Shown: piece after piece, positions 1-50,869 of the stretch
How the letters are laid out: each line of letters starts with the position of its first letter
How positions within the stretch are numbered: position 1 is the stretch's first letter
Assembly: GCA_051294375.1 (NCBI GenBank)
Contig: JBJCIZ010000016.1
Location: 1 to 64,000, forward strand
Direction: 5' to 3'
Source: Paraspadella gotoi
Lineage: Eukaryota > Animalia > Chaetognatha
Length of the DNA stretch: 64,000 nt
Notes under the pieces: generated by a model
What the model was told of the DNA's origin: nothing
Databases searched by the model: none
Seen by the model: only the letters and a program-made list of their open reading frames with translations
Translations under genes and position numbers: made by a program

Positions 1-171
1 TCCAGTCCATTTTTAAAACTCTGAACAAAAAATTTCATTTATTAAAAAAATAAATTTTGGGAATGGTTGGGGCTAGAAGGCAGGGGTTTAAACAGGGGAT
101 TTAGATTTTCGTTGCGTATCAGTCCGTTGCGTACTCATTGCGTACTCGTTGCGTACTCATTAAGAAATTCT

Positions 172-1503
172 AGGATTTGTGAATCATAATTTTACTAAAA
201 TTTTAGGATTTGTGAATCATAATTTTAGGATTTGTGAATCATAATTTTAGGATTTGTGAATCATAAATTTCGGATTTGTGAATCATAATTTTAGGATTTG
301 CGAATCATAAATTTATGATTTGAGAATCATAAATTTAGGATTTGCGAATCATAAATTTAGGATTTGTGAATCATAAATTTAGGATTTGTGAATCATAAAT
401 TTACAGATTTGTGAATCATAAATTTAGGATTGTGAATCATAAATTTAGGATTGGGACTTAATTTATTTGTGAATCATAAATTTAGGATTTGTGAATCTAT
501 AATTTTCGGAATTTAGTGAATCAAATTTTGGATTTGTGAATCATAAATTTAGGATTTGTTAATCATAAATTTATGGATTGTAATCATAAATTTTAGGATT
601 TGTTAATCATAAATTTCGGATTTGTGAATCATAAATTTAGATTTGTGAATCATAATTTTAACATTTGCGAATCATAAATTTCGGATTTGTGTTAAAGTAG
701 CAGGATAAAATATAAAACAATTTGAGAATGGTTGGGGCTAGAAGTCAGGGTTTAATAGGGGATTTAGATAATCTTGCATACTCGTTGCATACTCAGTAAG
801 AAATTTTAGGATTTGTGAATCATAATTTTAGGATTTGTGAATCATAAATTTGGATTTGTGAATCTTTAAATTTCGGATTGTGAATCATAATTTTTGGATT
901 TGTGAATCATATTTTTAGGATTTGTGAATCATAAATTTCGGATTTGTGAATCATAATTTTAGGATTTGTAAATCAGGAAAAAACAGTTTTTTTTTGACAA
1001 CGAGGTTATTTGACACAATTTTAGTCAGACATGTTTCGGCTCATTCATTTAGAGCCTCATCAAACACTGATGAAGGCTCTAAATGAATGAGCCGAAACTA
1101 TGTCTGACTAAATTGTGGTCAAATAAATCGTTGTCAAACAAAAACTGTTTTTTCTAATACCTCAAACAACGAAAAGGAGAGTATATATCATAATGATTTG
1201 TAAATCATAACTTTGGATTTGTTTTGAATCATAATTTCGGATTTGTGAATCATAATTTTAGGATTGTAAATCATAATTTTCGGATTGTGTAATCATAATT
1301 TTGATTTGTAAATCATAATTTTCGGATTTGTGAATCATAATTTGGATTTGTGAATCATAATTTTCGGATTTGTGAATCATAATTTTCGATTTGTGAATCA
1401 TAATTTTCGGATTTGTAAATCATTAAATTCGGATTTGGTAAATCATTAATTTCGGATTTGTGAATCATAATTTTAGAATTGCGAATCATAAATCTCGGAT
1501 TTG
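172..1503. repeat. 22-bp tandem satellite (GGATTTGTGAATCATAA[A/T]TTTA), two blocks
   Basis: Dozens of tandem copies. Interrupted at ~692-800 by a second copy of the GAATGGTTGGGGCTAGAAG motif block and at 976-1194 by an insertion. Confidence 0.95.
976..1194 (+). mobile_element. Penelope-like (PLE) terminus: inverted pLTR fragment with minimal type-I hammerhead ribozyme
   Basis: Inverted arms ~978-1061 and 1067-1154. Core CTGATGA-A-GGCTC..GAGCC-GAAA-C(T)ATGTC at 1067-1104. Family tail CAACGAAAAGGAG. GATTTGTAAATCA is duplicated on both sides (likely TSD). Confidence 0.8.
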
Positions 1504-2077
1504 TGTTATTAGTAACAAGGATAAATATAAATAAATAATACATAAATATTCTTATCTATCAAAAAATATTCAGTTTTAATAATTTTAATTTTTTCTAAAT
1601 TGTCAATCTGAATTTGGTCATAGTTTACTATGATTCCATAATTCAGATTATCGTTCTTTAACTAAAATTCATAATTCTTTAACCCAAAATATTTCTGATA
1701 TTTATCTTGATAGAATAATTTCTTTATTTAAAGATCCTATTATCTCATTTTCTTTTTGCTAACCTAATCCTCTGAGCAGAAATCATAAATCTGATAAATT
1801 TTAAATCATTTCTTAACCAAATTATAGTTTTGTACAGATGTAAAGTTTGAATAAAGATTTTAAATATCTAAAAATCAATTTCTAATCAACATTTTACTTT
1901 CAAAAGAAAAATACATTCAAGATTTAAAGCTTTATATTTTTTTAAAAAGAAAACATAGATTTATATTTCCAGAAACATATACAAGTTGATGAAAACCACC
2001 TGTAGTACATCTCTTATATATCAGTTATTTTATTAAAATAGGATTGTTACATTCTTGGCTATTTTGATAATAATTAA

Positions 2078-3451: not shown

Positions 3452-3554
3452 GGTAAGCAAAATAATGTAACAAGGACAAAAGTGTACCCATCTCGTACCC
3501 AAAGTGTACTCAATGAAAAAAATTAAGTAAAAAAAAAGAGGGAAAAATTAACCC

Positions 3555-3895
3555 TGGGAATGGTTGAGGGCTAAAAGGCAGGGGTTTAAAGGGGGATTTG
3601 CTTCGTGGGTACTCCTTGGGACTACTTGGTACAAAATATTCTTGAGTACACCTGGGTATCGTGTTTATTATTAACCTTGGTACTACTTGGGTACTCATTG
3701 GGATACTCATTGGGTACAATTCGTGAATGATTTCTTGGGTACACTCTGGGTACTACTTGGGACAAATATTCTTGAGTACCACTTTGGGTACCGTGTTTAT
3801 TATTAACCTTGGATACTATCTGGGTACTACTTGGGTACTCATTGGGTACAATTTGTGAATGATTTCTGAGTACTCTGGGTACTACGAGAGTACTA
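3555..3895. promoter_or_regulatory. Repeated upstream module: GAATGGTTG(A/G)GGGCTARAAGGCAGGGGTTTAA motif followed by GGGTACTACTTGGG repeats
   Basis: The same motif occurs at 61-100 and 726-765. This copy lies ~110 bp upstream of the POT1-like ATG. A regulatory role is inferred. Confidence 0.35.
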
Positions 3896-3907
3896 TCAAA
3901 AAAATTA

Positions 3908-4138
3908 TTGATTCACTAATCATAAAATCATGATTCGCGAATCATAAAATCCTGATTCGCGAATCATAAAATCCTGATTTCGCGAATCATAAAATCCTGA
4001 TTCGCGAATAATAAAATCCTGATTCGCCGAATCATAAAATCATGATTCGCGAAATCATAAAATCATGATTCGCGAATCATAAAAATCATGATTCGCGAAT
4101 CATAAAATCATGATTCGCGAATCATAAACATCATGAAT
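3908..4138. repeat. 22-bp satellite with palindromic core TGATTCGCGAATCA
   Basis: ~10 tandem copies of (C/A)TGATTCGCGAATCATAAAATC. Confidence 0.95.
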
Positions 4139-4139
4139 T

Positions 4140-5442: not shown

Positions 5443-5532
5443 GATAGAAGGAACAGTCGTATCCAACAGGTAGTGATATTATATCACTACAATGGTGTCG
5501 GCATAAACTCGCCAGTAACATGGGGTGGTCAC

Positions 5533-6264
5533 TAAGGCGTAGCGAAAGTTGCAGATCAAAATTCGAATAGTTGATCGTGAACAGTTTTGTACTAAAGAAC
5601 ATTGATATATAAAAAAAAATATTTTTAATTTCTTAATTTTCGCATACGCCCATATTTATACTTAGTACTTACTATAGAAAATGTCAAAATTTTAAAATAG
5701 TTTTTTTTAGTTTTGATTCGATTCAAATTCCTCATAAAAAGTTGATAAAAGTAAAAAACTCTTTTTAGAAAATTATTTCATTAAGCGGGTCAAAATCCTA
5801 GAAAACTTATCGTTAATTTATAATTCAATTTTAGTAGAAAAAATTTTTTTTTTGATTTTTAGCTAAATTAATGAAAGAATTTTTGATTAAGACTTATATT
5901 TTCTTTTAAGTTAGCTAAAAATCAAAAAAATATATTTTTTATACTAAAATTAAATTATAAGTTAACGATAACAGTTTTTTTAGGATTTTGACCCACTAAA
6001 TAAAATAATTTTCTAAAAAGAGTTATATTTACTTTTATTTACTTTTCGTGAAGAATTCGAATCTTTTTTCAAAAAAAAGAAAAAAACATTTTAAAATTTT
6101 AACATTTTCTATGGTGAGTACTATGTATAATTATGGGCTTTTGCGAAAATTGAAAAATAAAAAATATTTTTTTTTATATATCAATGTTCTTTAGTACAAG
6201 AATGTTCATGAACAACTATTCGAATTTTGATTCAACTCGATTTTAATATTTTTGCTACGCTTTA
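5533..6264. mobile_element. hAT-type foldback MITE
   Basis: TIR TAAGGCGTAGC / GCTACGCTTTA, long internal inverted arms, 8-bp TSD GTGGTCAC. Confidence 0.9.
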
Positions 6265-9420: not shown

Positions 9421-10711
9421 CTGAAAATAAAAGATTTTTTAATAATTAATTTCGACCCAACATTTTCATTTCAATAATTTTCAAATATGAATAATAAACG
9501 CTAACTAGCATAACAGATGAATGAAACCCGGAAACAGAGGAAAAGATTAAGGNNNNNNNNNNNNNNNNNNNNNNNNNTTATTAAGGAAGAGGATTTCCGG
9601 AAAGGAAGAAGATTCTGGAATGATTTCGAACGGGATTTTGGAGGCCAATCAAAAAGGAAAAAAAAAAAAAGAAAGAAAAAGAAAAAAAAGAGAAAAAGAG
9701 AGAAGAGCGATGAGAAAGAGGGAGATTTGTACAAAAAACTTCGATAAATAATATAAATAATAATAATAATAAATAATAATAATAAGTAAATAATAATAAT
9801 AAGTAAATAATAATAGTAAATAATAATAAGTAAAATGTAATAATAATAATTAAATAATAATAAATAATAATAATAATATAATAATAATAAAAAAATATAA
9901 ATAAGTAAATATAATAATAAATAAATAATAAATAATAATAAATATAATATTAAATAAATAATTAAACAAAGTAATTAAACAAAGTAATTAAATAAATTAA
10001 TAAATATAATAATTAATAAATTAATAATAAAAGTAAATGAATAAATAATTATTTAATGAATAATAAATAGAGAGAGAAGAACGGGAAGAAACAACAATAG
10101 TAACATGATAACAGACGCGACTGCGATCCCTAATATGAGTTCAATCCTTGGACAATTTTTTTTTAATAAAAACGAAAAGAAAGCAAGATAGAGAGAGAGA
10201 GAGAAAGAGAAATAAATAAAAATAAAGAGAATGACGAGAAGAAAGAACGAAAAAAAACCGATGTTGCGATAGCAAAATGATAACATGCACGAATGCAATG
10301 CTTAATTTTACGAGTTCAATCCTAATTCAATTTTTTTTAAAATAAAAACGCAGAGAGAGAGGAGAGAAAGAGAGAGAGAGAGAGCGAAGCCAAATCGTTT
10401 TCGGGATGAATCAGCAGAATCAGAGACTGGGGAAAAGAGAGAGAGCGAGCTACATATAATTAAAAAGAGAGAAAAAGAGAGAGAAGGAGACACAAAAAAA
10501 AATTCAAAGGCAGCAGCAGAATCATCAGGAGAAAAGAGAGAAAAAGAAAGAAAACCCCTGCAGAGCTTAAATCGCAGTTGCAGATTCTTTTTTTTCCCTT
10601 TGAATCAATAATAGTAAATTTATATAACATAATATTAAAATAAAATTAAATAATATTAATATGGTAATAGTATTAACAAGAATTTTATAATTAAATTAAA
10701 AATAAAAATAG

Positions 10712-11025
10712 AATTCAATCATAAAAATATGATTCGAATCATAAAATATGATTCGAATCATAAAAATATGATTCGATTCATTAAAATATATTCGATCATT
10801 AAAAATTGTTCGAATCAAATATTCAATTATAAAAATATGATTCGAATTATAAAAATATTATTCGAATTATAATAAATTATGATTCAAATCATAAAAATAT
10901 TGATTCAAATCAATAAATATGATTCAAATCAGATAAATATGATTCAAATCATAAAATATGATTCAAATCATAAAAAATATGATTCAAATCATATAAATAT
11001 GATTCAAATCATAAAAATATGATTC
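10712..11025. repeat. 20-bp satellite with palindrome TATGATTCGAATCATA
   Basis: Tandem AAAATATGATTC(G/A)AATCAT units. Cleaner copies at 15770-16052 and 19655-19820. Confidence 0.9.
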
Positions 11026-11352
11026 TGAACCATATTTTTAGATATTTTATAGATAAAAATCATACTTTATGATTCGAATCTTATTTTTATGATGTAAAAC
11101 TAAAAATCATTACAATATATAGTATTAGAAAAATCTCGACTACTATTCCTAAAAATTACCTGATGATTATATGTTTGTAACTTATTGGTTCTATTTCAAA
11201 TTTTTATGATTATAAGCTTTAACTCATTTATGGTCCTATTAATTTGAATCATATCTTTTTTTACTGTATTCAATTCTTATAATATTTATTACTTAACTAA
11301 ATAAATTTGGAATGATATTGCATTTAAAATTCAGAAAGATATATTAATTATT

Positions 11353-13508
11353 TTATATGACATCAATACCTATTTCTATTACCCCAAATACATTATTACC
11401 ATAAAAATCGTTTGCTTTTTTTAAATACGAACCTAAAAAAATGATATCTTCGTCAGTTTCGCTGCTGTTATCCCGTGAAGGTTCCTGCTTCACCAAGGTC
11501 ACCCATTCCTTTGGGTTTGCCCTGACAGGAAGTACGATGGGAACAATGTCTTGCTCTGCAACCTGAACACCCATTTGCCGTCAACATCCTCCTCCACAAC
11601 TTCGACGCCTTCCTTCCCTATCTTTGGACTGACTGCCGCATTCCTCCATCTCCGCTTGGTCCACCGCAATCCGTCGCACAAGTCGCTCCGCCGCCGTCCG
11701 CCAAAGGCCTCCTCCGCCGACCGCCAAAACCTCCTCGCCGCCCGCCAAAGCCTGGTCGCCGCCCGCCAAAGCCTTCGTCGCCGCCTTGCCAAAGCCTCGT
11801 CGCCGCCCGCCCAAAGCCTCGTGCCGCCCGCCAAAGCCTTCGTCCGCCGCCAAGCCCTCCGCCGCCAAAGCCTCGTCCGCCGCCCGCCAAAGCTTCCTCG
11901 CCCCCGCCAAAGCTCCTCGCCGCCGCCAAAGCCTCGTCGGGCCGCCCGCCAAAGCCTCGTCGCCGCCCGCCAAAGCCTCGTCGCCGCCCGCAAAACCTCC
12001 TGGTCGCCGCCCACCAAAAGCCTCGTCGCCGCCCGCCAAAGCCTCGTCCCGCCGCCAAAGCTCGTCGCCGCCGCCAAAGCCTCGTCGCCGCCGCGCAAAG
12101 CTTCGTCGCCGCCCGCCAAAGCTTCCTCGCCGCCCGCCAAAGCCTCCTCGCCGCCGCCCAAGCCTCCTCGCCGCCCGCCAAAAGCCTCCTCGCCGCCCGC
12201 CAAAGCCCCTCGCGCCCGCCCAAAGCCTCCTCGCCGCCGCCAAAGCCTCCTTGCTCCCGCCGATCCTTTCCGTTGCCGTCACCCGCTGTTCGACGCCCTC
12301 TGCCTGTCCATCCCTCCGTCGCCTGTCCATCTTCCATCTCCCTTCTGCCAGCGTTTCCCGTCTGTTTGCCAATCTCCATCGCACCATCTGCCTTTCCGCT
12401 TTCCTCCATGTTTCATTGCTTTTCCATCATCCTCTTTCATCAGTCCACCGCCTTTCATTATCGACGCCGCTTCTCCTCCACCCTCGACCGCCATCACCAT
12501 CGACCTGCCCCTCTCCTTCTGGCTGTCGTTGTCTTCAATTGATGCTAACTGCCCGTCATTCTCCTTCATTGCAGGACCGGCACCGTCGTCTTCATCGTAG
12601 AAAATTATCGGACGTTTACGAGGACGTCCTCGACGTTTAGGCTCTGGTGTTTCAGAAAAAAAATTATTACAAGTTTTATTTAGCAAAAATACTCACGAAA
12701 TTCAATTTTAGAGAAAAAATTTTTTATGTCACAAACAACATTTTTTTAAAACAATGATTGAGTCCATCATTTGCGCAACCATGAAGTCAAAACATGTCTG
12801 TTTTTTGAGACTAAAAAAAAATGTTTGTTGTGAAACAATAAAAACTTTTTCTCTAAATTTTGAATGCAACAAAAAGAGAGCCAAAATACAAAGTCTTAAA
12901 AGAATTAACATGAAATGAAAAATAAATAAACTTTTAATTTTTTTAATATTCAAAAGTATTCAATTATTATTCTTTCTATTTCATGAATTTATTGTTCATA
13001 ATTTTAATAATAATAAATGGAGAAGGTGAAGAATTGTAACCGATGTAAGGATGTAACAGACCATGACATGACTTACAATAACTTTTTTAGCCTGTGTATT
13101 TATGACACGCAATGCATTAGAATTCCGTCGTTTATTCTTTTTAGTTTGAGGATTTCTGTTCTTTAAAAAGGCAACTGACTGACCGACCGAAAATTAACTT
13201 AAAGTTGCTCGCGAGTATTTGCGGCAAAACAAACGGTTTTAGAAATAATACCTAACTAACCTGCAGCTAGTTGAGTTTTCTCAACATTCCTCTTCCTCAT
13301 CTTCACAAATAACTAGTTTATCCTCGTCACTATCGTCTTTGGAAGAAAGACTTGAAGTTGCCTAAAAGAAAGGATAAGATTAAATTAGAAATGATATTCA
13401 AATTCAAATTTTAAAATTTTTATTAAATATTTACTTTCGGAGGTGATCCTCCAAAGGACGTGGCTTTGTAGCTCGTTTCTTTCCGATAGGGTTTCCTCTC
13501 AGGTTCAA
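11353..13508 (-). pseudogene. Duplicated 3' exons of the AT-hook gene with expanded 21-bp GC-rich minisatellite (~27 units), frameshifted
   Basis: Same exons as 18104-16423, with many single-base indels. The overlapping GC-rich ORFs in the track come from the CCTCCTCGCCGCCCGCCAAAG repeat. Confidence 0.7.
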
Positions 13509-13619
13509 CTAAAAAAAATTTTTTAAAAATAATCAATATTACCACCGTCTTTATATTTCATTATTTTTAGGAAAGTAACCTAAATGTTATACATATATTT
13601 CAATATATACATATTCTTA

Positions 13620-13962
13620 ACAATTTTTAGTTAAAACCATTTCAATTTCCTATTCACAACTAAAATCTCTATTAGTCCTCATTCTTAACCTGTCTCACCA
13701 CTTGACCACTATTCTTTTTCTCAACTCTGTGTTGGGAAACTTTGCCCTGTCTCTCTCTTCTCTCTCTCCCTCTCTCCCTTCTTTCACACAAAAAACTGTC
13801 CAAAATTCACAAATTGTTTGACGCTGAGAAGGCTTGCAACTAAAAGCCGAAACATGTCCGTTTTTTCTATGAAAAAAAAAAAAAAAAAAAATTCCGTTGT
13901 TTAAACAAAAACCATTTTGCCCTCAATACATAGACCAACGAAAAGAAAGGTTATTACCAATA
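13620..13962 (+). mobile_element. PLE pLTR with hammerhead (duplicate of 18215-18550)
   Basis: CTGAGA-A-GGCTT..AAGCC-GAAA-CATGTC at 13824-13858. Conserved pLTR block CTCAACTCTGTGTTGG(G)AAACTTTGCCC. Confidence 0.7.
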
Positions 13963-27516: not shown

Positions 27517-31180
<3,664 letters not shown>

Positions 31181-35900: not shown

Positions 35901-38900
35901 CTGCTAATCTTAAATCAATGACCCTTTGAATGTAGAACTCTGAATCTGGTTCGATCTGAGGAGTAAAATGTTTTATAATTGAATGATAACCACAATGTCC
36001 ATCTTTATTGCAAGAAAGAATTACAAATGGAAATTTTATATCATTTATTATTAACAGATTAACATTTTTATAACAGAATAATGATCTTTCATTCAGAGAT
36101 TCCATGCGCTCTTTATCTTTTAAAATTGTAGTTATTATGTCCTGACAATTTTGTATAATGTTAGGACTTAGGCTCAATGTGTCTATATTTTCTAAATCCT
36201 TTGGAGTAGAGGTTGGAATATGTTTAATTGGAGTTAGTGTCAAATCATCAGAAGGATCTGGAAATGAGCGAATCCCATCAATTTCATATTTTTCAACCAA
36301 CCTTTTCAAATAAGTTTTAAAAGTGCTTTTAATTATTTTTTTTGGAACTAAATTTATGCTAGTTAAAATTTGATTGCCATCAGATATTAATAATTTAGTG
36401 ACCTCACTGTTGCAGGTTAGTTCAATTTCGTCATCAACTTTGCTAAATTTCAGAACTGCAGGGTTTTCCTTTAGCAATAATTTTTTTGCAATTGACCAAT
36501 GGCGGTTTAAAAAAAATTCTTTTAAAAAATTGCTTTCTCGTAATGACTTTGCTAAAAAAATCTTTTCATAGTGTGATTGAAAAGCAGTTGTTGCATGTAA
36601 AATTGGTTCATTTTCATCATCAGTACTACCTTTGCCTACTGGTTCTACTGTTTCTACGTTACTTTCATTCACGGGATTGGGTTGACTATCTTCTTCAACA
36701 TCAGAATCAACCAACATTTCTCCAGATTTTGATGTTGGAAGTTTAAATGGATATTGAAATTGGCCCAAAACATTTACCATTTTAACTTTACGACTATCCA
36801 TTTCATTGTCACATAGATGCTTTTGCAAATACTCTTTTGCAAACAATTTTTCCATACCACAAGTAATAGAGATTGAATTGGATTCGACAAAGCTGCATTA
36901 AAAAATAAGCCCCAGTAAACAAAATATTTTTAAAAAACGAAAATAATAATCTATGATTATAAATTTATGATTCAAAAGATACTATTCTATAATTTGAAAA
37001 TGAAATAATAATCATATTTTTAAGCTTTAATTCTATTTTTATAATTAATTCAAAAATGAAATTTTATGACGGAAAATATAACAATTTTAAATTCTCCCCC
37101 AAAAAATATATTATCATTTTAATAACATTATTATGATTCCAAATATAACACATACAATCTCAAAAATATAATTCGATGATATTAAAAATTTAATATAGTA
37201 AATTCTAAATTATGATTTTAAAAATATGATTTTATGATTTAAAAAAAATGATTTTATGATTTAAAAAAAATGATTTTATGATTTGAAATAAGAGAATAAT
37301 ATTTAATAGGTTTTCAAAGCATAAAATCATATTTTTCAAAGCATAAAATCATATTTTTCAAAGCATAAAATCATATTTTTCAAATCAAAATCATATTTTT
37401 CAAATCAAAATCATATTTTTCAAATCAAAATCATATTTTTCAAATCAAAATCATATTTTTCAATAACATTATATTTATTAACATAGAATTGTATTTGTGT
37501 TATCATGAAAAGTTTTTTGTAAGATATTATATTGATATGTTGATATTACATAGTCATATATTTTTATTATTAATTAGTACTATTTAATGTTGGTCTCAAA
37601 GAATCAAAACGGTTTTTTGAAAGTTACAATTATATTTTTAAAATCAATCATATTTTTTTAATAAGAGAATAATATTAATATGTTTTAAAATAATAAATCA
37701 TTTTTAAAGTCATATTTTTAAAATTATAGAATCATATTTTTAAAATTATAGAGTCATATTTTTATAATTATAAAATCATATTTTTCAAATCATAAAATCA
37801 TATTTTTCAAATCATAAAATCATATTTTTCAATAACAAAATTATAAAAAATAGAATTGTATTTATGTTATCATGAAAAGTTTTTTTTAAGATATTATATT
37901 TTTTTCAAGCCACATGATATTACATAGTCAAATATTTTTGTTATTAAATAGTACTATTTAACGTTTACCTCAAAGAATCAAAACGGGTTTTTGAAGCTTA
38001 CAATTATATTTTTCAAATCATAAAATCGTATTTTTCAAATCGTATTTTTCAAATCGTATTTTNNNNNNNNNNNNNNNNNNNNNNNNNCAAAAAAACCGTT
38101 TTGATTTTTTGAACAGATATTAAATAGCACTATTTAATTAAAAAATATATGACTATGTAATATCATTTTGGTTTCAAAAAAATATAATATTTACAAAAAA
38201 CTTTTCATGATAACAAAATACAATTCTATGTTAATAATTATTATGTTATTGAAAATATGATTTTATGATTTGAAAAATATGATTTTGATTTGAAAAATAT
38301 GATTTTGATTTGAAAAATATGATTTTATAATTTTTACAATATGATTTTATAATTTGAAAAATATGATTTTATAATTTTTATATTATGATTTTATAATTTT
38401 AAAAATATGATTTTATGTTTTAAAAATATGATTTTTAAAAATATAATTATAACTTCAGAAAAACCGTTTTGATTCTTTTGAGACCAACATTAAATAGTAC
38501 TATTTAATAATAAAATATGACTATGTAATATTATTTTGGCTTCAAAAAAATATAATATCTTACAAAAAAGTTTTAATTATAACATAAATACAATTCTATA
38601 TTAATAATTAAAATGTTATTGAAAATCTGATTTTATGATTAAAAATATTATTTGAAAAATATGATTTTATAATTTGAAAAAATATGATTTTATAATTTGA
38701 AAAATATGATTTATAATTTGAAAAATATGATTTTATAATTTGAAAAATATGATTTTATAATTTGAAAATATGATTTTATAATTTTGAAAAATATGATTTT
38801 ATAATTTGAAATATATTTTATATATTTATAGTTTTAAAAATAGGATTTTATAATTTGAAAAAATATGGTTTTTATGATTTGAAAAATATGATTTTATGAA

Positions 38901-41900
38901 TATTAAAACCTATTAAATAGTATTCTTTTATTTAAAAAATATTGTGATTTAAAAAATATGATTATGATTTTAAAAGTATAATTTATAACCTTCAAAAAAC
39001 CGTTTTGATTCCTTGAAACCAACATTAAATAGCACTATTTAATAATAAAAATATATGATTATGTAATATCATTTGGTTTCAAGAAAATATAATATCTTAA
39101 AAAAAACCTTTCATGAAAACATAAATACAATTCTATGTTAATATTTATAATGTTATTAAAAAATATGAATTTATGATTTGAAAAATATGATTTTATGATT
39201 GAAAACCTATTAAATATTTATTCTCTTATTAAATGAATATGATTATGATTTTAAAAATATAATTGTAATCTTCAAAAAACCGTTTTGATTCTTTGAGACC
39301 AACATTAAATAATACTATTTAATTATAAAAATATATTATTATGTAATATCATTTTGGCTTCAAAAAATATAATATCTTTATAATATCTTTCATGATAACA
39401 TAAATACAATTCTATGTTAATAATTATAATGTTATTGAAAAATATAATTTTATGATTTGAAAAATAGGATTTTATGATTTGAAAATAGGATTTTATGATT
39501 TGAAAAAATAGGGAGTGGTCTTTTCATACAATTGAAACATTCTTTGAAATATTATACCACTTCATTGATAGGGAAGCCAGGTTCACTGGAGTGAATAAAT
39601 GAGACTGTGAAAGAGTCTTGATTGAAAGCTTGCAGAAACCTGCTATGTTATTATCTTGTAAGTGTGATGGAGGCCTTAAACCACCAAAGCCTGTCCAAAG
39701 TCAGGGACAAGATAGCTTATTTATTAAATGAATGGATAATTTTTATATTTGGTTGTACCAATTTCATAGGATTTTATGATTTGAAAAATAGGATTTTATG
39801 ATTTGAAAAATAGGATTTTATGATTTGAAAATATGATTTTATGATTTGAAAAATATGATTTTATGATTTGAAAAATATGATTTTATGATTTGAAAAATAT
39901 GATTTTTTATGATATTAAAACCTATTAAATAATATTTTTTTATTAAAAAAATATTGTGATTTAAAAATATATGATTATGATCTTTAAAAAGTATAATGTG
40001 TAACTTCAATAAAATAAAACCCGTTTTGGTTCCTTGAAACCAACATTAAATAGCACTATTTAATAATAAAAATATATGATTATGTAATATCATTTTGGTT
40101 TCAAGAAAATATAATATCTTAAAAAAAACCTTTCATGAAAACATAAATACAATTCTATGTTAATATTTATAATGTTATTAAAAATATGAATTTATGATTT
40201 GAAAAATATGATTTATGATTTGAAAAATAGGATTTTATGATTTGAAAAATATGATTTTTTTATGATATTAAAACCTATTAATAATATCTTTTTAAAAAAA
40301 TATTGTGATTTAAAAAATATGATTATGATTTTAAAAGTATAATTGTAAACCTTCAAAAAACCGTTTTGGTTCCTTGAAACCAACATTAAATAGCACTGTT
40401 TAATTATAAAAATATATTATTATGTAATATCATTTTGGCCTCAAAAAATATAATATCTTTATAATATCTTTCATGATGACATAAATACAATTCTATGTTA
40501 ATAATTATAATGTTATTGAAAAATACGATTTTATGATTTGAAAGATAGGATTTTATGATTTGAAAATATGATTTTTTATTTGAAAACCTAATAAATATTA
40601 TTCTTTTATTAAAAAAATATGATTATGATTTTAAAAATAAAATTGTAACATTCAAAAAACCGTTTTATTCTTTGAGACCAACATTAAATAATACCATTTA
40701 ATAGTAAAAATATATGATTATGTAATATTATTTTGGCCTCAAAAAAATATATCCTACAAAAACTTTTCATGATAGCATAAAATACAATTCTATGTTAATA
40801 ATTATAATGTTATTGAAAAATATGATTTTATGATTTGAAAATTACGATTTTATGATTTAAAAAATATGATTTTATGATTTGAAAAATATGATTTGAAAAA
40901 TATGATTTTATGATTTGAAAAATATGATTTTATGATTTGAAAAATATGATTTTATGATTTGAAAAATATGATTTTATGATTTGAAAAATATGATTTTATG
41001 ATTTGAAAAATATGATTTTATGATTTGAAAAATATGATTTAAAGTTATGATTTTGTAATTTTAAGATGATTTTATCATTTAAGACTTATTAAATATTATT
41101 CTCTATTAAAAAAATATGATTATGATTTTAAAAATATAATTGTAACCTTCAAAAAAACCGTTTTGATTCTTTGAGACCAACGTTAAATAGTACTATTTAA
41201 TAATAAAAATATGACTATGTAATATCATTTTGGCTTCAAAAAAATATATGTTACAAAAAATTTTTATGATAACATAAATACAATTCTATGATAATAATTA
41301 TAATGTAATTGAAAATTATGATTTTATGATTTGAAGAATATGATTTTATGATTTGAAAAATATGATTTTATGATTTCAAAATTATGATTTTATGATTTGA
41401 AAAATATGATTGATTTTATGATTTGAAAAATATGATTTTATGATTGAAAAATATGATTTTATGATTTGAAAAAATATGATTTTATGATTTGAAAAATATG
41501 ATTTTATGATTTGAAAAATGATGATTTTTAATCGATTTGAAAAATATTACGATTTGAAAAATACGATTTGAAAAATACGATTTGAAAAATACGATTGTCA
41601 AATCATAAAATCATATTTTTCAAATCATAAAATCATAATTTTGAAATCATAAAATCATATTTTTCAAATCATAAAATCATATTCTTCAAATCATAAAATC
41701 ATAATTTTCAATTACATTATAATTATTATCATAGAATTGTATTTATGTTATCATAAAAAATTTTTTGTAACATATATTTTTTTGAAGCCAAAATGATATT
41801 ACATAGTCATATTTTTATTATTAAATAGTACTATTTAACGTTGGTCTCAAAGAATCAAAACGGTTTTTTGAAGGTTACAATTATATTTTTAAAATCATAA

Positions 41901-44900
41901 TCATATTTTTTTAATAAGAGAATAATATTTAATAAGTCTTAAAATGATAAAATCATTCTTAAAATTACAAAATCATAACTTTAAAATCATATTTTTCAAA
42001 TCATAAAATCATATTTTTCAAATCATAAAATCATATTTTTCAAATCATAAAATCATATTTTTCAAATCATAAAATCATATTTTTCAAATCATAAAATCAT
42101 ATTTTTCAAATCATAAAATCATATTTTTCAAATCATAAAATCATATTTTTCAAATCATATTTTTCAAATCATAAAATCATATTTTTTAAATCATAAAATC
42201 GTAATTTTCAAATCATAAAATCATATTTTTCAATAACATTATAATTATTAACATAGAATTGTATTTATGCTATCATGAAAAGTTTTTGTAGGATATATTT
42301 TTTTGAGGCCAAAATAATATTACATAATCATATATTTTTACTATTAAATGGTATTATTTAATGTTGGTCTCAAAGAATAAAAACGGTTTTTTGAATGTTA
42401 CAATTTTATTTTTAAAATCATAATCATATTTTTTTAATAAAAGAATAATATTTATTAGGTTTTCAAATAAAAAATCATATTTTTCAAATCATAAAATCCT
42501 ATCTTTCAAATCATAAAATCGTATTTTTCAATAACATTATAATTATTAACATAGAATTGTATTTATGTCATCATGAAAGATATTATAAAGATATTATATT
42601 TTTTGAGGCCAAAATGATATTACATAATAATATATTTTTATAATTAAACAGTGCTATTTAATGTTGGTTTCAAGGAACCAAAACGGTTTTTTGAAGGTTA
42701 CAATTATACTTTTAAAATCATAATCATATTTTTTAAATCACAATATTTTTTTAAAAAGATATTATTAATAGGTTTTAATATCATAAAAAAATCATATTTT
42801 TCAAATCATAAAATCCTATTTTTCAAATCATAAATCATATTTTTCAAATCATAAATTCATATTTTTAATAACATTATAAATATTAACATAGAATTGTATT
42901 TATGTTTTCATGAAAGGTTTTTTTTAAGATATTATATTTTCTTGAAACCAAAATGATATTACATAATCATATATTTTTATTATTAAATAGTGCTATTTAA
43001 TGTTGGTTTCAAGGAACCAAAACGGTCTTTATTGAAGTTACAGATTATACTTTTAAAGATCATAATCATATATTTTTAAATCACAATATTTTTTTAATAA
43101 AAAAATATTATTTAATAGGTTTTAATATCATAAAAAAATCATATTTTTCAAATCATAAAATCATATTTTTCAAATCATAAAATCATATTTTTCAAATCAT
43201 AAAATCATATTTTTCAAATCATAAAATCCTATTTTTCAAATCATAAAATCCTATTTTTCAAATCATAAAATCCTATGAAATTGGTACAACCAAATATAAA
43301 AATTATCCATTCATTTAATAAATAAGCTATCTTGTCCCTGACTTTGGACAGGCTTTGGTGGTTTAAGGCCTCCATCACACTTACAAGATAATAACATAGC
43401 AGGTTTCTGCAAGCTTTCAATCAAGACTCTTTCACAGTCTCATTTATTCACTCCCAGTGAACCTGGCTTCCCTATCAATGAAGTGGTATAATATTTCAAA
43501 GAATGTTTCAATTGTATGAAAAGACCACTCCCTATTTTTCAAAATCATAAAATCCTATTTTTCAAATCATAAAATCCTATTTTTCAAATCATAAAATTAT
43601 ATTTTTCCATAACATTATAATTATTAACATAGAATTGTATTTATGTTATCATGAAAGATATTATAAAGATATTATATTTTTTGAAGCCAAAATGATATTA
43701 CATAATAATATATTTTTATAATTAAATAGTATTATTTAATGTTGGTCTCAAAGAATCAAAACGGTTTTTTGAAGATTACAATTATATTTTTAAAATCATA
43801 ATCATATTCATTTAATAAGAGAATAATATTTAATAGGTTTTCAAATCATAAAATCATATTTTTCAAATCATAAATTCATATTTTTTAATAACATTATAAA
43901 TATTAACATAGAATTGTATTTATGTTTTCATGAAAGGTTTTTTTTAAGATATTATATTTTCTTGAAACCAAAATGATATTACATAATCATATATTTTTAT
44001 TATTAAATAGTGCTATTTAATGTTGGTTTCAAGGAATCAAACGGTTTTTTGAAGGTTATAATTATACTTTTAAAATCATAATCATATTTTTTAAATCACA
44101 ATATTTTTTTAATAAAAGAATACTATTTAATAGGTTTTAATATCATAAAATCATATTTTTCAAATCATAAAACCATATTTTTCAAATTATAAAATCCTAT
44201 TTTTAAAACTATAAAAATATATTTTTAAAATCATATTTTTCAAATTATAAAATCATATTTTTCAAATTATAAAATCATATTTTTCAAATTATAAAATCAT
44301 ATTTTTCAAATTATAAAATCATATTTTTCAAATTATAAAATCATATTTTTCAAATTATAAAATCATATTTTTCAAATTATAAAATCATATTTTTCAAATA
44401 ATATTTTTTAAATCATAAAATCAGATTTTTCAATAACATTTTAATTATTAATATAGAATTGTATTTATGTTATAATTAAAACTTTTTTGTAAGATATTAT
44501 ATTTTTTTGAAGCCAAAATAATATTACATAGTCATATTTTTATTATTAAATAGTACTATTTAATGTTGGTCTCAAAGAATCAAAACGGTTTTCTGAAGTT
44601 ATAATTATATTTTTAAAATCATATTTTTAAAACATAAAATCATATTTTTAAAATTATAAAATCATAATATAAAAATTATAAAATCATATTTTTCAAATTA
44701 TAAAATCATATTGTAAAAATTATAAAATCATATTTTTCAAATCAAAATCATATTTTTCAAATCAAAATCATATTTTTCAAATCATAAAATCATATTTTTC
44801 AATAACATAATAATTATTAACATAGAATTGTATTTTTGTTATCATGAAAAGTTTTTTGTAAAATATTATATTTTTTTGAAACCAAAATGATATTACATAG

Positions 44901-47900
44901 TCATATATTTTTATTATTAAATAGTGCTATTTAATATTGGTCTCAAAAAATCAAAACGGTTTTTTGAAGGTTACAATCATATTTTTAAAATCATGATCAT
45001 ATTTTTTTAAAAAAAGAATAATATTTAATAGGTTTTCAAATCATAAAATCATATATTTCAAATCAGTATTTTTCAAATCATAAAATCATATTTTTTCAAA
45101 ATCATAAAATATCATATTTTTCAAAATCATAAAATCATATTTTTCAAATCATAAAATCCATATTTTCAAATCATAAAATCACTATTTTTCAAAATCATAA
45201 CAATCATATTTTTCAAATCATAAAATCATATTTTTCAAATCATAAATCATATTTTTCAAATAATATAAATCATATTTTTCCAAATCATAAAATCATATTT
45301 TTTCAAATCAATAAAAATCAATCTATTTTCAAATCATAAAATCATATTTTTCAACATCATAAAATCATATTTTTCAAATCATAAATATCAATATTTTTTT
45401 CAAATATCAATAAAATCATATTTTTCAAATCAATTAAAATCATATTTCTCAAATCATAAAATACATATTCTTTTACAAATCATAAAATCATACTTTTTAC
45501 AACATCATAAAAATCATAATTTTTTCAAGGAATCAACTACAATCATATTTCTTCAAATCATATTTTTCAAATCATAAAATCATATTTTTCAAGTAATAAA
45601 ATCATATTTTTCAAATAATAAAATCATATTTCTCAAATCATAAAATCATATTTTTTTAATAACATTATAATTATTAACATAAAATTTTATTTATATTATC
45701 ATAAAAAGTTTTTTGTAAGATATTATATTTTTTGAAGCCAAAATGATATTACATAATTATATATTTTTATTATTAAATAATTTTATTTAATGTTAGTCTC
45801 ATAGAATCAAAATGGTTTTTTGAAGGTTAATTATATTTTTAAAATCAATCATATTTTTTTAAGAGAATAATATTTAATAGGCTCTAAAATATTTTTAAAA
45901 TCATTAAATCATATTCTTAAAATTATAAAATCATTTTTAAAATCATAAAATCTAGAACAAAGTTTTGAAGTGAAACGGACATGTTTCGACTCACATACGA
46001 GTCTTCTTCAGCGCCAATTAAATTTGAGGAGGTTTTTGTGCATAAAGAAAGAGAGAGACAGAGCAAAGTTTCCAACACAGAGTGAGAGAAAGGATAGTGA
46101 TCAATTTTTTTTATTAAGGACAGGTGGAGGTGAGGACAAAGATAGTTTGTAAAAAGATATTGAAATGGAGAGAGAGAGATATTTTTTAATAAGAGAACAA
46201 TATTAAATAGGTTTTAAAATCATAAAATTATATTAAAATCATATTTTTAAAATCATAAAATCATATTTTTAAAATCATAAAATCATATTTTTAAAATCAT
46301 AAAATCATATTTTTAAAATCATAAAATCATATTTTTAAAATCATAAATAGCACTATTTAATAATAAAAATATATGAATATGTAATATCATTTTAGCTTNN
46401 NNNNNNNNAATATCTTACAAAAAACTTTTCATGATAACATAAATACAATTCTATATTAATAATTATGTTTTTGAAAAATATGATTTTATGATTTTAAAAA
46501 TATGATTTTAAAAATATGATTTTATGATTTTAAAAATATGATTTTATTACTTTAAAAATATTTTATTATTTTCAAAAAATGATTTTATTATTTTCAAAAA
46601 ATGATTTTATTATTTTCAAAAAATGATTTTATTATTTTAAAAATATTTGATTATTTTAAAAATATTTTATTATTTTAAAACCTATTAAATATTATTCTTT
46701 TATTAAAAAAATATGATTATGATTTTAAAAATATAATTCTAACCTTCAAAAAACCGTTTTGATTCCTTGAAACCAACATTAAATAGCACTATTTAACAAT
46801 AAAAATATATGACTATGTAATATCATTTTAGCTTTTAAAAAATATAATATTATACAAAAAACTTTTCATGATAACATGAATACAATTTTATGTTAATAAT
46901 TATAATGTTATAATTTTACTACTTTAAAATCCTAAAATAAAAAATATATATGCAGATTTTATAAAATTTAAAAATTCAGACTACATCTTTGAAAACTGTT
47001 TCTAAAACCTACTGAAGCGACTTAAAAATAATTTATTGAATGAAACATACCCGATTTCTTCATTGACATGATCATAAAACATCTGTTCAGATATTGTATT
47101 GATGAGAGGGATAATCGCATTGATCTGTTGAGGTGTCAATTTATGGGCTTTCTTCAGATGAAATTTAATTTTGTCAAAACCACCTAATCCATTAAGCAGT
47201 GCCATTTCAGGTGGATGCATCCACTTCTCAGAGCTATAAAAAAGTTTTAAACAATTTAAGAATTAAAAATTCATAATTTTATAAATTTGAAAAAAATATT
47301 ATTTTATCAACAGAGTAAAACTTACTAACTGCATGGGCCATTTTTACATCCAAAGGGACAAAACATCAATCTAGATCGGTTGCGTGCAATGATGCGATCT
47401 TGGAGGGGACCATGGATAACTCGGTAAAGAACAGATGCAGGAGTAGAAGAGCTGCTTGCACCGGTTTGATTTAAATTTGCTTTCCCACGCCCTGACGATT
47501 CTTCCCTATAAAAATATAGTTATATACTCTAAAACTTAAAGTATTATTAACTTGATAATTATTTCATTTAAAAATGAAGCTTTTACCTTTTCCAACCATA
47601 TTGTAGACATTTGAGAACAACATCTTCAGTTCTTTTAGATTCAAGGTTGAAAAAAAATAACTTTGTCTTTTGTAAGATCTCAAACGATTGTCCTGTAAAA
47701 TAAGAATAATATTAATCTTTAAAATACCTTAAAACAAATTCATATTACAACTAACCTTGTTCATTCAAGCAATTTTTGATGCGGACACACTCGCCCGTAA
47801 TCAAAGGAGGACCATTGTCCACATCAATTTGAAGGTGATGAGATATTTTGCCCTTTGTTCTGGAAGCTTGATCGCATAGTTCTTCTATGGCCGAGTAGTT

Positions 47901-48711
47901 AAGACCTAAAAATTAAATAATCATTAAATATAATTTTATGGATCTATGTATATTAAGGCGTAACAAGGTAAAAACTAAGAGTTCTGTAATATAAATAACA
48001 TTAGAGCATCCCTGTGGGATAACGAAATTTTTCCAAAAATTTAGATTTTATGTATAGTTAATAACATGGAAGCATTTAAAGTTTATCGTATTATTATAAA
48101 TCATGAATAATTTTTTTTTCAAATTCGGAATTTATAAAAACGGATTCGGGTAGAGCTTGAAAAAATAAATAAAAAAATATTATTACAAGATTTCCAAATT
48201 TTTATGTTTTATTGGTTAAAATTAACAAAAACTATAAAAGTTATGGAACAATTATGATGATGATTTTAAAGTTTTTCCCTTATTTGACGTACTTATCATC
48301 GAAATATTAAAAAACGCATTATACTTTATAAATTTTTGCTATCTGAATCCGTTCTTAAAAAATAAAATTTTTACAATTTTTTTTTATTGCTTATGCATTG
48401 ATGAATATTTGAATGCTTCAATGTTATACTGTTAAAACTAGTCAAAAAAGTGATAATAAATATTGATTAAGTATATGATGGACAAATGAATTTTATATTA
48501 TAGAACTCCTAATGATAAAAAGTGATCAATTTTGGCCCGCCTTAATGTATATATATAAATGTAGAAACTTACGAATTCGTTCTATGAATGGATTAGGTTT
48601 GCAGAATGAGTCCCGACATTTAGTTTGATTATCGCAAGATAACCTCACAACAGATTCCGGATCAGTCGATTTTTTCAGCAGAAAATGTTTGAAAGATGGT
48701 GGTAAAACCAT
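32926..48711 (-). CDS. ~1574-aa C2H2-like / OTU protease / tyrosine recombinase protein (exons 48711-48573, 47905-47756, 47692-47587, 47505-47326, 47233-47051, 36892-32926)
   Basis: Phase-consistent GT-AG introns (1,1,2,2,2), total 4725 nt. OTU: NKDGHCGYHSI (Cys ~35993)..SHFDSL (His ~35585). YR: NVSRSSD (R ~33905), QNKN, PSFWR (R ~33512), HMQHS..AEESY (H ~33401, Y ~33374). CPFGC..FHLKKAH in the 5' exons. Confidence 0.8.
39511..39766. mobile_element. ~260-bp dispersed repeat without TIRs (GGGAGTGGTC...GTACCAATTTCA)
   Basis: Inserted in satellite between TA dinucleotides. Other copies at 43276-43532, ~52923-53183, partial ~31513-31690, eroded ~58370-58490. Confidence 0.7.
45955..46180 (-). mobile_element. 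PLE pLTR with hammerhead
   Basis: Reverse strand GCG-CTGAAGA-A-GACTC..GAGTC-GAAA-CATGTC-CG at 45976-46014. Shared pLTR block at 46060-46090. Confidence 0.8.
47954..48544. mobile_element. hAT-type MITE in YR intron 1
   Basis: TAAGGCG / CGCCTTA termini, 8-bp TSD ATGTATAT. Confidence 0.85.
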
Positions 48712-50869
48712 ATTCACATGATTATAGTCTACTGCGTTTGAAGAATTGAATTAACTGACAAAAAAAATCATGTAAATACATCAAATGATTCAATGACTGA
48801 AAAATAATATAACACAAATTTTTAGCAAGCTTTGAATCCTGATAGTTATTATTTAATTTAAATATTTTTGAATATTGAATTAGATTCAGTAATAATTGAA
48901 CAAAATATGATAAAAAAGTTTGAAATAAAACAATTTAATAAAATAAATAATTTAGCAATTTTCATAAAGAAATATTTTATTTTGAAGAAGTTTTCCAATA
49001 AAGGAATTTACACAATAACAATTTATGAAAATATGATTATTATTATTATATATACATTAAACATTTTTACATGCTAGTAAAAAAAATACAAAATTAACTA
49101 TATTAGTACTATCACTAAATAGCTCCCTTAAAAAATTTGATTAATTTCAATGACAAAGCTTTCCTTCATACACACGGCTTTAAATCCTTAACATGTGTCA
49201 GCGGAGACAAAAATAAGTTTACAAAATTACTAAAGCAATTTTAACCATCTAGCGAGAACACAAAATCCGTTATATCAAACTATAAACAGGGTCTTCGAGA
49301 TATTTTTTTAAAAAATTTGGGCCTGTAATACTTGAGAATGGTTAAATGTAGATTAAAACCGAAAACATTTATAGAAACTTTATGATCTTAGTTTTCAATG
49401 GATGCCCAAAAAACTCAAAGGATATTGCGAAGTTAAAGACTTTTGTTGTTAAGATATGTACCAACTAAATGTAGCCATTAATAATGGAATTCGTAAGATC
49501 TTTGGCTGACATAGATGGGAAAGCATCACCTTATAGAATGTTTTGGTTACCCTGACATTTATCATACTTTTTAAAAAAGGTCATGAACGATTAACGAAAA
49601 ATATTTTTTTTATTTCCTTGAAAATATAGAAATAATCTCGTAGATTAGTTTTCCTTCACGTTACCTTTTAATATAATATTATTTGTTTGGTTTATTATGT
49701 TGCTGATGTATGCATTGTATCATTCTGACAAGAAATAAAATTCTCATTAATAGAATAATGGAAATATGGACTTTTATACGCGACACGTCAGTTTTTGTTA
49801 CGCAAAAGTGGTTTATTTGCTCGACCTAAGAAAGCTTTGATGCTTTACAGTTTGCTTAAAATTGATAAATAAAAATAAATACAGTTTGGAAATCTGCTTG
49901 GTCTTAACTTTCAATCGATACCAAATGCTAAAAAATTGATAGGGGAAGGGGAAGCAATATAATTTTTATCCGGATGTATCATTTTTTTAAAGTATGAAAC
50001 CATAAGGCGTAACGCCAAAAGTTTACTTTCGCCTATTGGGTTAGGGGGGTTTAGGGTTAAGAATGGGTTAGGGGGGTTTAGGGTTAAAAGAGTTCATGGT
50101 TAGGGTAATTAGGTAATAATTTTTTTAAAAATAATTATTTTTAGATTATTTTTCAAAAGACGCCAATCCCCGGAAAGCAAAGTTAAATTTTACCCTAGTA
50201 AGTTACTTCGGAACTTACTTAATATAATATAGTAAATCATAAAGCCCTCAAAAAATTGAATCTGCTCGATTTTACTTTTATAATCATACCAATTTTCAAA
50301 AGATTAGTTTATTTTTTACTGCTTCAAATGAATTTTTTAAAAATTCCTAAATAGCTAGAAGACCTGGTAAGTATGCTATTACTACCAAAAACTTCTTAAA
50401 AAACTGAAAGATCATAAAATGTTAATGTCAGACAAGTAGTCAAGAAAAAATAAGTAAAATCTAACTGGTCAAACCTGAAATAATACCTATCACGCGGTCT
50501 CGTTAAAGAAAATATGAAATAAAAAAGGAAAAAAAATATTGTAGTTAATAAAAAATTTAAATATAATTAAAATTAGACTAAAACAAAATTAAAATTAATT
50601 GTTTTGAACGTATTATCATTGAGTTTTAACTCGGGCTAACTACGTAAAATAAGTCACTTGGAATTCGTAGTAAATGGCGCGTCGCCGGTCAAAGAGGCTC
50701 AGTAGTTGATGACAAAGTCTCGACAAATTCAGACGTCGATGAGAAGAGCCGGCCGACGGTCCTCCACTGTGAAGCCCAGCACTTGTGATGAGAATGAAAT
50801 GCAAATTTGTCATTGAGGACGGATTCACGAGATATTGTGTTCCATTTCCCATTGCAGGGGCGGCATCGA

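Follow-up and report, generated by a model that had tools for sequence, protein, structure and literature searches.

A candidate large DNA element led by an OTU-tyrosine recombinase gene in an animal-type genome

Predicted genes of the block

The window (the whole 64,000-nucleotide stretch that was analysed) contains a gene block of about 48 kb, in which hand-made exon models give four predicted genes, every one on the minus strand and in the order OTU-YR (an OTU-like domain fused to a tyrosine recombinase, YR), RecQ, AT-hook/C2H2 and POT1-like (Table 1). All four predicted spliced frames are stop-free, and GT-AG borders were present at 18/18 predicted introns of the four genes; four genes would share an orientation by chance in 1 case in 8 (p = 1/8). 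The initial annotation had described five spliced minus-strand genes with a YR as the first. Strand, order and the leading position of YR stood, while the count fell to four, as exon 9420-9301 joins the AT-hook and C2H2 parts in one frame. The labels YR, OTU, RecQ and POT1 were borne out by fold, domain and profile comparisons, and the further gene placed beyond the left edge came down to two signs, a stretch resembling an acceptor and, at position 10, an ATG.

Table 1. Coordinates of predicted genes, domains, repeats and the junction in the window
Feature	Position	Strand	Details
OTU-YR gene, predicted 1574 aa	32926..48711	-	Six exons, hand-made spliced model: 48711-48573, 47905-47756, 47692-47587, 47505-47326, 47233-47051, 36892-32926
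OTU-like domain	35521..36060	-	Cys box DGHCG, His box SHFDSL; ESM Atlas, P0136 alignment
YR core-binding and catalytic domains	33300..34803	-	Fold, Foldseek, VIA-align, relatives
BLM-like RecQ gene, predicted 703 aa	27517..31180	-	Exons 31180-29893, 29410-29324, 28253-27517
AT-hook-like gene with two C2H2 fingers, predicted 650 aa	6616..21775	-	Nine exons, spliced model: 21775-21622, 21068-20897, 20590-20427, 20297-20220, 18104-18031, 17958-17859, 17240-16461, 9420-9301, 6926-6616
Compact POT1-like gene, predicted 305 aa	2078..3350	-	Exons 3350-3185, 2955-2812, 2746-2525, 2463-2078
Junction, candidate right end or insertion point	48660..48661		Contigs of runs X1, X4, X6
Palindromic arrays, 21-22 bp	165..1505		Related arrays at 3901-4136, 10702-11093, 15759-16121, 19547-19822
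Module	46..165		Recurs at 721-801 and 3543-3599, upstream of the POT1-like gene; none right of 4.5 kb
Higher-order satellite	37200..46800		22-bp repeats with a spacer of ~200 bp, blocks in both orientations
Palindrome	38090..44965		Arms of 3.34 kb, 9 mismatches, 79 gap positions; begins at N gap
Indel-rich tandem duplicate	most of 9871..15085		Copy of 15095-19662, zinc-finger exons 5-7; beside N gap

BLM orthologues are built of a long N-terminus, a helicase core, an RQC and an HRDC. The predicted RecQ protein, which is ~40% identical to BLM-like proteins, matched DEAD (E 6e-22), Helicase_C and RecQ_Zn_bind (E 0.003) in Pfam, and has a short N-terminus of about 130 aa and a weak RQC. Lacking the long N-terminus and a match to HRDC, it appears on sequence to depart from the orthologue layout, and in the tree its end branch is 2.36 against a median of 0.23. 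POT1 itself combines an OB1-OB2 layout with a C-terminal OB and binds telomeric single-stranded DNA. Exon 2 of the POT1-like gene matched PF02765 at E 7.7e-6 (26.2 bits, below the 29-bit cut-off), and the predicted protein has an N-terminal OB fold and a C-terminal part with two CxxC pairs, which may represent a zinc-ribbon OB of the POT1/RPA type; the length of this protein would leave little room for an OB2, and PDB sequence searches with exons 1, 2 and 4 returned no POT1 and no hit in support of the zinc ribbon. In the AT-hook/C2H2 gene, the C2H2 match (Pfam, E 0.0017) fell under the cut-off, and the exon that presumably carries an AT-hook and a SIM had no Pfam match. To judge from these predicted proteins, the genes neighbouring OTU-YR look like derived copies of DNA-handling genes.

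For the Pfam scan, 17 stretches were picked from 73 ORFs of at least 80 aa. Among the block ORFs scanned, none matched a conserved housekeeping family, and neither a reverse transcriptase nor a DDE transposase was found, so that YR is the sole integrase found. Comparison with PHROGs gave nothing meaningful, and Rfam gave 0 matches at gathering score.

The recombinase and its relatives

The catalytic residues of YR, in spliced numbering, are R1249, K1288, R1380, H1417 and Y1426, the first His of the usual HxxR being replaced in this protein (SFWR). An AlphaFold2 model of YR reached a mean pLDDT of 77, and a single-sequence fold with a pLDDT of 37 was set aside. In VIA-align, proteins of the YR fold filled the first 19 rows with middling Z scores; XerA gave the best row (Z 8.9, rmsd 14.2, 231 aligned), and the Brujita integrase (Z 8.5), the S. 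aureus integrase (Z 8.1, rmsd 4.5, 152 aligned) and Cre (Z 8.0) were among the others, with the core-binding domain at Z 7.5 and an rmsd of 2.9. The best 11 rows of a Foldseek search against the PDB were all YRs, none of them at E 0.001. The modelled structure supports the assignment of a tyrosine-recombinase fold, with the full catalytic set R-K-R-H-Y, to the predicted lead protein.

Conservation of this set was counted in 29 representative relatives, each scored only where the site was covered, and the residues were kept in 10/11 (R), 10/10 (K), 14/14 (R), 11/12 (H) and 12/12 (Y), the H/Y stretch being covered by 12 clusters under 50% identity. All of the relatives looked up (18/18) are unnamed ENA metagenome proteins, and the long ones have N-termini that differ from one another. 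One relative, P0136, retains the OTU+YR layout, with an alignment that begins where the last exon starts and extends across OTU into YR, and with an identity of 32% over 233 aa for the OTU region. This region had no Pfam match and lay at 0.94 to PF02338 clusters in the ESM Atlas, and the OTU part is predicted to be a deubiquitinase. At E 0.05, no match to DUF3435 (PF11917) was obtained in the 1323-aa exon or in the 15/29 relatives scanned, and Pfam gave none to DUF3504 or GCR1_C in the same exon and relatives, a comparison that covers the groups having Pfam models. A word-index search with the whole 1323-aa exon returned nothing. That YR belongs to a new, unnamed eukaryotic family is, in our view, a solid conclusion. 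Because its many divergent, catalytically complete members are unnamed proteins with variable N-termini, the family looks like one of mobile elements.

The ESM Atlas neighbours of both YR (EsV-1-213-like, 0.95) and OTU (0.94) include Nucleocytoviricota clusters, and palindromic arrays, which also occur in the block, recall viral origin regions. Both points would suit a large DNA virus that had integrated and whose remnant was then colonised by introns. We hold such an origin to be highly improbable, however, as an Atlas row from another domain of life does not indicate transfer, the window's scanned ORFs include no capsid, polymerase or packaging ATPase, no viral structure matched at E 0.001, and the search for related loci in viral contigs (IMG/VR) and phages yielded no relative.

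Repeats, gaps and the right-hand junction

The palindromic arrays reported in the initial annotation are real, with units of 20-22 bp, and a search of viral and metagenome contigs for their pattern gave 0 matches. They are absent from ~17 kb within the block (about 20-36.9 kb) and from 47-64 kb. The shared modules said to separate the genes are likewise present, but many of them are not specific to the block, 19 BLAST segments being shared with the DNA to the right. The higher-order satellite fills intron 5 of the YR gene (10.2 kb). Both the palindrome and the tandem duplicate are possibly assembly artefacts; the palindrome was also considered as a protelomerase-type site and rejected, being intronic, with a 165-nt spacer, and starting at a gap.

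Four N gaps occur in the window, two of them in YR intron 5 (38 and 46 kb) and one in zinc-finger intron 7 (~9.5 kb). The gene order could in part be a product of assembly, if unrelated pieces were brought together when long reads were used to fill gaps, either at the N gaps or at 48661. Consistent with this, gaps lie at or close to the starts of the palindrome and the duplicate, whose copies diverge mainly through indels, the run contigs align with many gaps to the DNA right of 48661, and none of the run contigs compared (46950-58200) spans two of the genes. Against it, the frames stay open with matching phases across the gaps at 38, 46 and 9.5 kb, and YR and RecQ share one gap-free stretch, 0.87-0.90 of whose words were found in 4/8 sequencing runs. 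We consider a gene order created in part by assembly decidedly unlikely.

The comparison of run contigs was confined to four of the eight runs (X1, X4, X5 and X6). Contigs of a multi-copy unit on the right depart from the window exactly at 48660/48661 and continue with 486-609 other letters, and the unit right of 48661 has 6-16 times the depth of YR. That a multi-copy unit continues differently at this point fits insertion into a repeated target. The junction may be the right end of an element whose left end lies beyond the window. Beyond A/T arms of 4-5 bp, no terminal repeat, inverted or direct, was found at the junction. The start of the YR gene is uncertain because it lies right of this junction, which the predicted first exon straddles, with its ATG on the multi-copy side. 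An in-frame ATG upstream of the junction would occur by chance at 299/1637 positions (18%), and the continuity of the frame across it is thus weak support.

YR exons 2-5 lie on one contig with 0 differences, at a depth of 22 (X1) and 99 (X4), and the bin depth over them is barely higher, at 26 (X1) and 124 (X4), contig depth being here a rough guide to copy number without a single-copy host control. Nothing in these figures hints at sister copies of 85% likeness. A third sample, from a different study (X5), likewise contains YR exon 4, which was found in 3/3 samples with enough depth. The initial annotation had treated single-copy genes as evidence against a mobile element, and on this point the data count in part against such an element, with YR exons 2-5 seemingly low-copy and exon 4 recovered from three samples. 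In one X5 contig exon 4 is unmethylated at 5/5 CpG, and the repeats right of 49.5 kb are methylated; an unmethylated exon 4 is more in keeping with a host-like or active gene than with a transposon under silencing. Runs X5-X8 hold 0.00-0.02 of the words of 27400-37000. An empty haplotype in these runs was considered and rejected, X5 being bisulfite-like yet containing YR exon 4, and X6 being too low in depth: it has a few percent of the X1 depth on most repeats, and its missing cover is therefore uninformative.

Low copy, four intact frames, the recovery of exon 4 from all three samples and its lack of methylation also speak for a block of mobile origin that the host has since domesticated as a gene cluster, with fixation in the species and a role in programmed rearrangement, DNA elimination or chromosome-end maintenance. 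CpG o/e, which is 0.6-0.7 in most measured YR, RecQ and POT1-like stretches vs 1.05-1.3 in repeats, points the same way, and Crypton YRs are described in the accessible source text as domesticated several times in animals. The YR family, however, comprises many divergent subfamilies rather than one orthologue per species, and 0/18 of the relatives looked up belong to a named genome; we regard domestication as quite unlikely.

Known elements and a proposed route of movement

Starships are giant cargo-carrying YR transposons with short direct repeats at both ends, described from filamentous fungi. In the accessible parts of the sources (PMC9156397; bioRxiv 10.64898/2026.09.21.753150) their YR gene comes first and is read inward, the cargo behind it extends over tens of kb and includes DUF3723, FRE, PLP and NLR genes, and a circular intermediate is the likely route. 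The block resembles them in a YR that comes first among its genes and in the extent of its presumed cargo, and would probably use a similar route. In contrast to Starships, it has an OTU fused to its YR, carries RecQ, POT1-like and zinc-finger genes, and lies in an AT-rich genome that is probably animal. The Starship-like element of the initial annotation is, without a DUF3435 match, not a Starship by definition, and nothing in the present data points to the episomal or telomere-associated stage that had been envisaged for it.

Cryptons end in direct repeats of 4-6 bp. They share with the block a YR as the only integrase and the lack of long terminal repeats, some members are intron-bearing, and certain oomycete families carry a C48 protease, as far as the available text of the sources describes them (PMC3212892; Glomhopper PMC13465315). 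The block differs from them in that its YR has no DUF3504 or GCR1_C match and its protease is an OTU, fused to YR, and it is far larger, with three more genes, whereas the same text describes Cryptons as YR-only or YR plus one gene. This description would favour a narrower origin, in which only OTU-YR is mobile-derived, as a Crypton-like element that would measure no more than about 16 kb with its repeat-filled intron, and lies by chance beside fast-evolving, lineage-specific host paralogues of BLM, POT1 and zinc-finger genes in a repeat-rich region. In its favour, YR and cargo were not seen together at any second locus in the contigs scanned, repeats are shared with the outside, the cargo genes are intron-rich like host genes, and the co-orientation has p = 1/8. 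Yet three DNA-metabolism orphans in a row behind YR, with no recognised housekeeping gene, would be much for chance, and RecQ is a long-branch, truncated copy. We find a mobile origin of OTU-YR alone improbable on balance, if by no means far-fetched.

Helentrons and Helitrons share the toolkit of an OTU-like protease, a single-stranded-DNA-binding OB protein (RPA) and a helicase, but are described in the accessible part of PMC6431247 as moving by an HUH Rep and a helicase of their own, where the block has YR and RecQ. No RepHel protein was found, the only helicase found in the block being of the RecQ type. The helicase of AcademH is RecQ-like, and the element has terminal inverted repeats. AcademH, a DNA transposon of animals and fungi with a DEAD/Helicase_C helicase, uses a DDE transposase according to the available text of PMC10799480, and the block ORFs scanned hold none. 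A full-text literature search, with Repbase reports and most subscription papers outside its scope, found no YR element with OTU, RecQ and POT1-like genes, and the literature searched describes no giant YR transposon with such a gene set from animals.

We tentatively prefer to read the block, with confidence a little short of even, as one resident, low-copy large DNA element that opens with OTU-YR and carries the RecQ, AT-hook/zinc-finger and POT1-like genes as cargo of its own. This reading is favoured because of the YR fold, the catalytic set, the family pattern, the OTU+YR layout of P0136 and the first-gene position, and because the neighbours look derived, no housekeeping family was matched and the junction is sharp in three runs. 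It is weakened because no second locus with the same gene order was found in the viral, metagenome and genome contigs scanned, YR exons 2-5 show no sign of further copies, a terminal repeat was not seen at the junction, the arrays and many of the modules are not specific to the block and co-orientation is at p = 1/8, and also because exon 4 occurs in a third sample and is unmethylated and the first exon straddles the junction. It is conceivable, though doubtful, that the block represents a new family of giant, intron-bearing, cargo-carrying YR transposons in animal-type genomes, comparable to Starships but equipped with a helicase, a single-strand-binding protein and a deubiquitinase, inserted here in a roughly 10-copy repeat at 48660/48661, and that the true start or promoter of YR comes only when the ends join on a circle.

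By analogy with Cryptons and Starships, the recombinase of such an element would cut short sites at both ends, free a circle and reinsert it. RecQ may unwind or branch-migrate recombination or replication intermediates, the POT1-like OB protein may coat single-stranded DNA, the OTU domain could remove ubiquitin either from the complex or from silencing factors of the host, and AT-rich DNA of the element could be bound by the AT-hook/C2H2 protein. If the block moves as a unit, animals as well would have a means, akin to integrative elements, of moving tens of kb of spliced genes, copies of telomere and repair factors among them. The present copy looks long settled, with large introns full of host repeats and no near-identical sister copy, and we think it unlikely that the block is currently mobile. 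Even on a more cautious reading, what emerges is a eukaryotic YR family, as yet without a name and with an OTU fusion, that has at least 12 divergent members with intact His/Tyr stretches and gives a profile for screening assemblies.

An OTU-fused tyrosine recombinase family

The predicted recombinase of the OTU-YR gene, a tyrosine recombinase (YR) joined to a predicted deubiquitinase-type OTU domain, was not recognised by Pfam. HMMER against 1.84 billion representatives recovered 29 relatives with E values of 0.001 or lower, of which the top one shared 38% identity over 485 aa, and an AlphaFold2 model from an alignment of 32 sequences had a mean pLDDT of 77. The top 11 rows of a Foldseek search of this model against the PDB were all YRs, none significant alone. 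VIA-align gave Z scores of 8.9 for XerA, 8.5 for the Brujita integrase, 8.1 for the S. aureus integrase (rmsd 4.5, 152 aligned), 8.0 for Cre and 7.5 for a core-binding domain (rmsd 2.9); the ESM Atlas agreed with the assignment. The catalytic residues were retained among the relatives covering each site: R1249 in 10 of 11, K1288 in 10 of 10, R1380 in 14 of 14, H1417 in 11 of 12 and Y1426 in 12 of 12.

The OTU label was based on an Atlas value of 0.94 to PF02338 together with Cys and His boxes. In one relative, P0136 (1417 aa), four matching stretches followed one another in order, beginning with the last exon, crossing the OTU domain and reaching into the YR; two others, P0121 and P0122, had low-complexity, unrelated N-termini. 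All 18 relatives looked up (of 29) were ENA proteins without names, and most came from short contigs. We conclude that the OTU-fused YR constitutes a new YR family, and the gene very probably derives from a family of mobile elements.

Four predicted genes and their counterparts in known elements

The initial annotation had listed five spliced genes. Hand-built exon models with predicted splicing upheld stop-free minus-strand frames with GT-AG introns (18/18), but gave four genes: the AT-hook and C2H2 genes, listed separately as third and fourth, are one, as exon 17240-16461 joins the C2H2 exon in phase via 9420-9301, for which no usable start of its own was found.

Predicted genes and other features of the window
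Feature	Coordinates	Strand	Remarks
OTU-YR	48711-32926	-	predicted 1574 aa; fifth intron 10.2 kb
RecQ		-	predicted 703 aa
AT-hook/C2H2		-	predicted 650 aa
POT1-like		-	predicted 305 aa
GGEEALA coding repeat (GC-rich, 21 bp)	16719-16855		intact exon; 6.5 copies
GGEEALA coding repeat	11692-12251		duplicate; 27 copies
Degenerate coding-like stretch	49150-49560	+	within multi-copy unit
Broken retroelement-like remnant	50600-56300	+	~7-16x YR depth; CpG-methylated in run X5
Very high-copy short repeat	52923-53184		bin depth ~339,000 in run X1, against 22 for YR exons
Copies of this repeat	31561-31683, 39510-39768, 43274-43533, 58334-58489, 60017-60127
Inverted-repeat (MITE-like) family	5555-6231, 7399-7693, 61851-62249		inside and outside the block
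Hammerhead-like CTGA.GA...GAAAC motifs	1067, 8823, 9057, 18413, 45983, 58955, 59057, 63420
Inverted pairs of these motifs	977-1154, 8760-9148, 58890-59150

The window is AT-rich (GC 13-51% by block), contains four N gaps, and has introns with T-rich acceptors. An acceptor-like stretch lay within ~20 nt before the ATGs of the POT1-like (3350), AT-hook/C2H2 (21775) and RecQ (31180) genes and that of a possible left-edge gene (10); these possibly reflect 5' UTR introns or trans-splicing, the signal being weak in such AT-rich DNA.

The RecQ scored 232 bits to human BLM, its nearest match, and 200 bits to RECQ1; this and the T-rich intron acceptors suggest an animal host. It retained Walker A, DEAH and motif VI, with only ~130 residues ahead of the core and no HRDC match in the predicted protein. 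A tree of 18 rows, sampled thinly and mainly from bacteria through 17 of the fetched proteins, gave the RecQ a long branch of 2.36 against a median of 0.23 and no supported placement. Exon 2 of the POT1-like gene matched PF02765 at E 7.7e-6, under the curated cut-off, and the AT-hook/C2H2 zinc-finger gene had no relative among the fetched proteins. It is quite possible that such neighbours are host paralogues which a lone YR element adjoins. Our preferred, if tentative, reading is that the block, the left ~48 kb carrying all four genes, represents a large, cargo-carrying YR element, resident in the genome at low copy number, in which the RecQ, POT1-like, OTU and zinc-finger proteins would have the roles that their families suggest.

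By analogy with Cryptons (PMC3212892, PMC13465315) and Starships (PMC9156397, 10.64898/2026.09.21.753150), the element would have been excised as a circle and then reinserted, and the block likely works like one or the other. The YR, however, has no match to DUF3435, the Starship captain family, and falls outside the Pfam-modelled Crypton groups. Helentrons carry OTU, as does the block, and RPA (PMC6431247), and AcademH carries a helicase, again as in the block (PMC10799480), but the integrase of each differs from the YR. No element with the set of OTU-YR, RecQ, POT1-like and zinc-finger genes was found in the literature searched; the family could be listed in Repbase or in supplementary transposon catalogues. 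Of the giant Starship-like element first proposed, the observations were confirmed in part and the interpretation was supported in part: the YR family with its OTU fusion is well supported, and the giant-element claim is plausible rather than established. A virus remnant would be a very improbable source of this gene set.

Read depth and methylation around the 48661 junction

Of eight listed sequencing runs, four (two samples of one study) contained 0.87-0.90 of the sequence words in the YR-RecQ stretch; the assembly may itself derive from the sample behind one of these four. Read contigs of runs X1, X4, X5 and X6 were compared over 46950-58200. YR exons 2-5 lay on a single contig with zero differences, whose depth was 22 (X1) or 99 (X4); rightwards of 48661 the longest contigs were 6-10x deeper than these exons in X1 and 9-16x in X4, contig depth being distinct from true copy number and 'low-copy', without a single-copy host control, a relative term. 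The present copy is unlikely still to be mobile, and it is also unlikely that the genes are a domesticated cluster.

The multi-copy contig match ended exactly at 48661 in X1, X4 and X6, followed by 486-609 other letters, and three readings of this junction remain. The YR block may have been inserted into a repeated target, for which there is precedent in Starships, where circularisation lengthens the captain's promoter. Alternatively, the block may belong to a ~10-copy family sharing at least 9 kb upstream, and the element would then extend further right than the 1..48760 first drawn; or the junction may be an assembly product. Since the predicted first exon straddles the junction, the YR start is uncertain.

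Run X5 was bisulfite-like: among eight shown records, the difference count equalled the C count in three, C minus CpG in three, and lay between in two. YR exon 4 was present with all 35 C converted, including five CpG (one contig, depth 3.7), and records at 49542-50127 and 55304-55438 kept every CpG. From this pattern the host appears to methylate repeats, with YR exon 4 unmethylated in a third sample. The shown X5 contigs changed from unmethylated (left) to CpG-methylated (right) at 49474-49542. The retroelement-like remnant further right had no informative Pfam match; we take its fragments to be integrase-like and envelope-like.

Repeats, palindrome and duplicate

Palindromic arrays with a common ATGATT..AATCAT core occurred at seven sites between position 165 and 46.8 kb, but were absent from ~17 kb within the block and likewise from the right flank. 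Right flank and block were joined by 19 BLAST segments; the two of these families lying in the read-covered stretch were high-copy (bins of ~10,000 and 339,000 in X1), and the only module confined to the left end was 46-165 / 721-801 / 3543-3599.

A palindrome with 3.34-kb arms (9 mismatches, 79 gap positions) begins at an N gap, and a duplicate at 9.9-15.1 kb is indel-rich. Palindrome and duplicate are possibly artefacts of long reads, in which case the block would be ~8.5 kb shorter; that the gene order is partly mis-assembled we consider distinctly improbable. Each palindrome arm contains one copy of the very high-copy short repeat. The hammerhead-like pattern had ten matches in the window, with no Rfam match for the motifs and five of six folds not unusual; the motifs often form inverted pairs, which presumably resemble the ends of Penelope-like elements.
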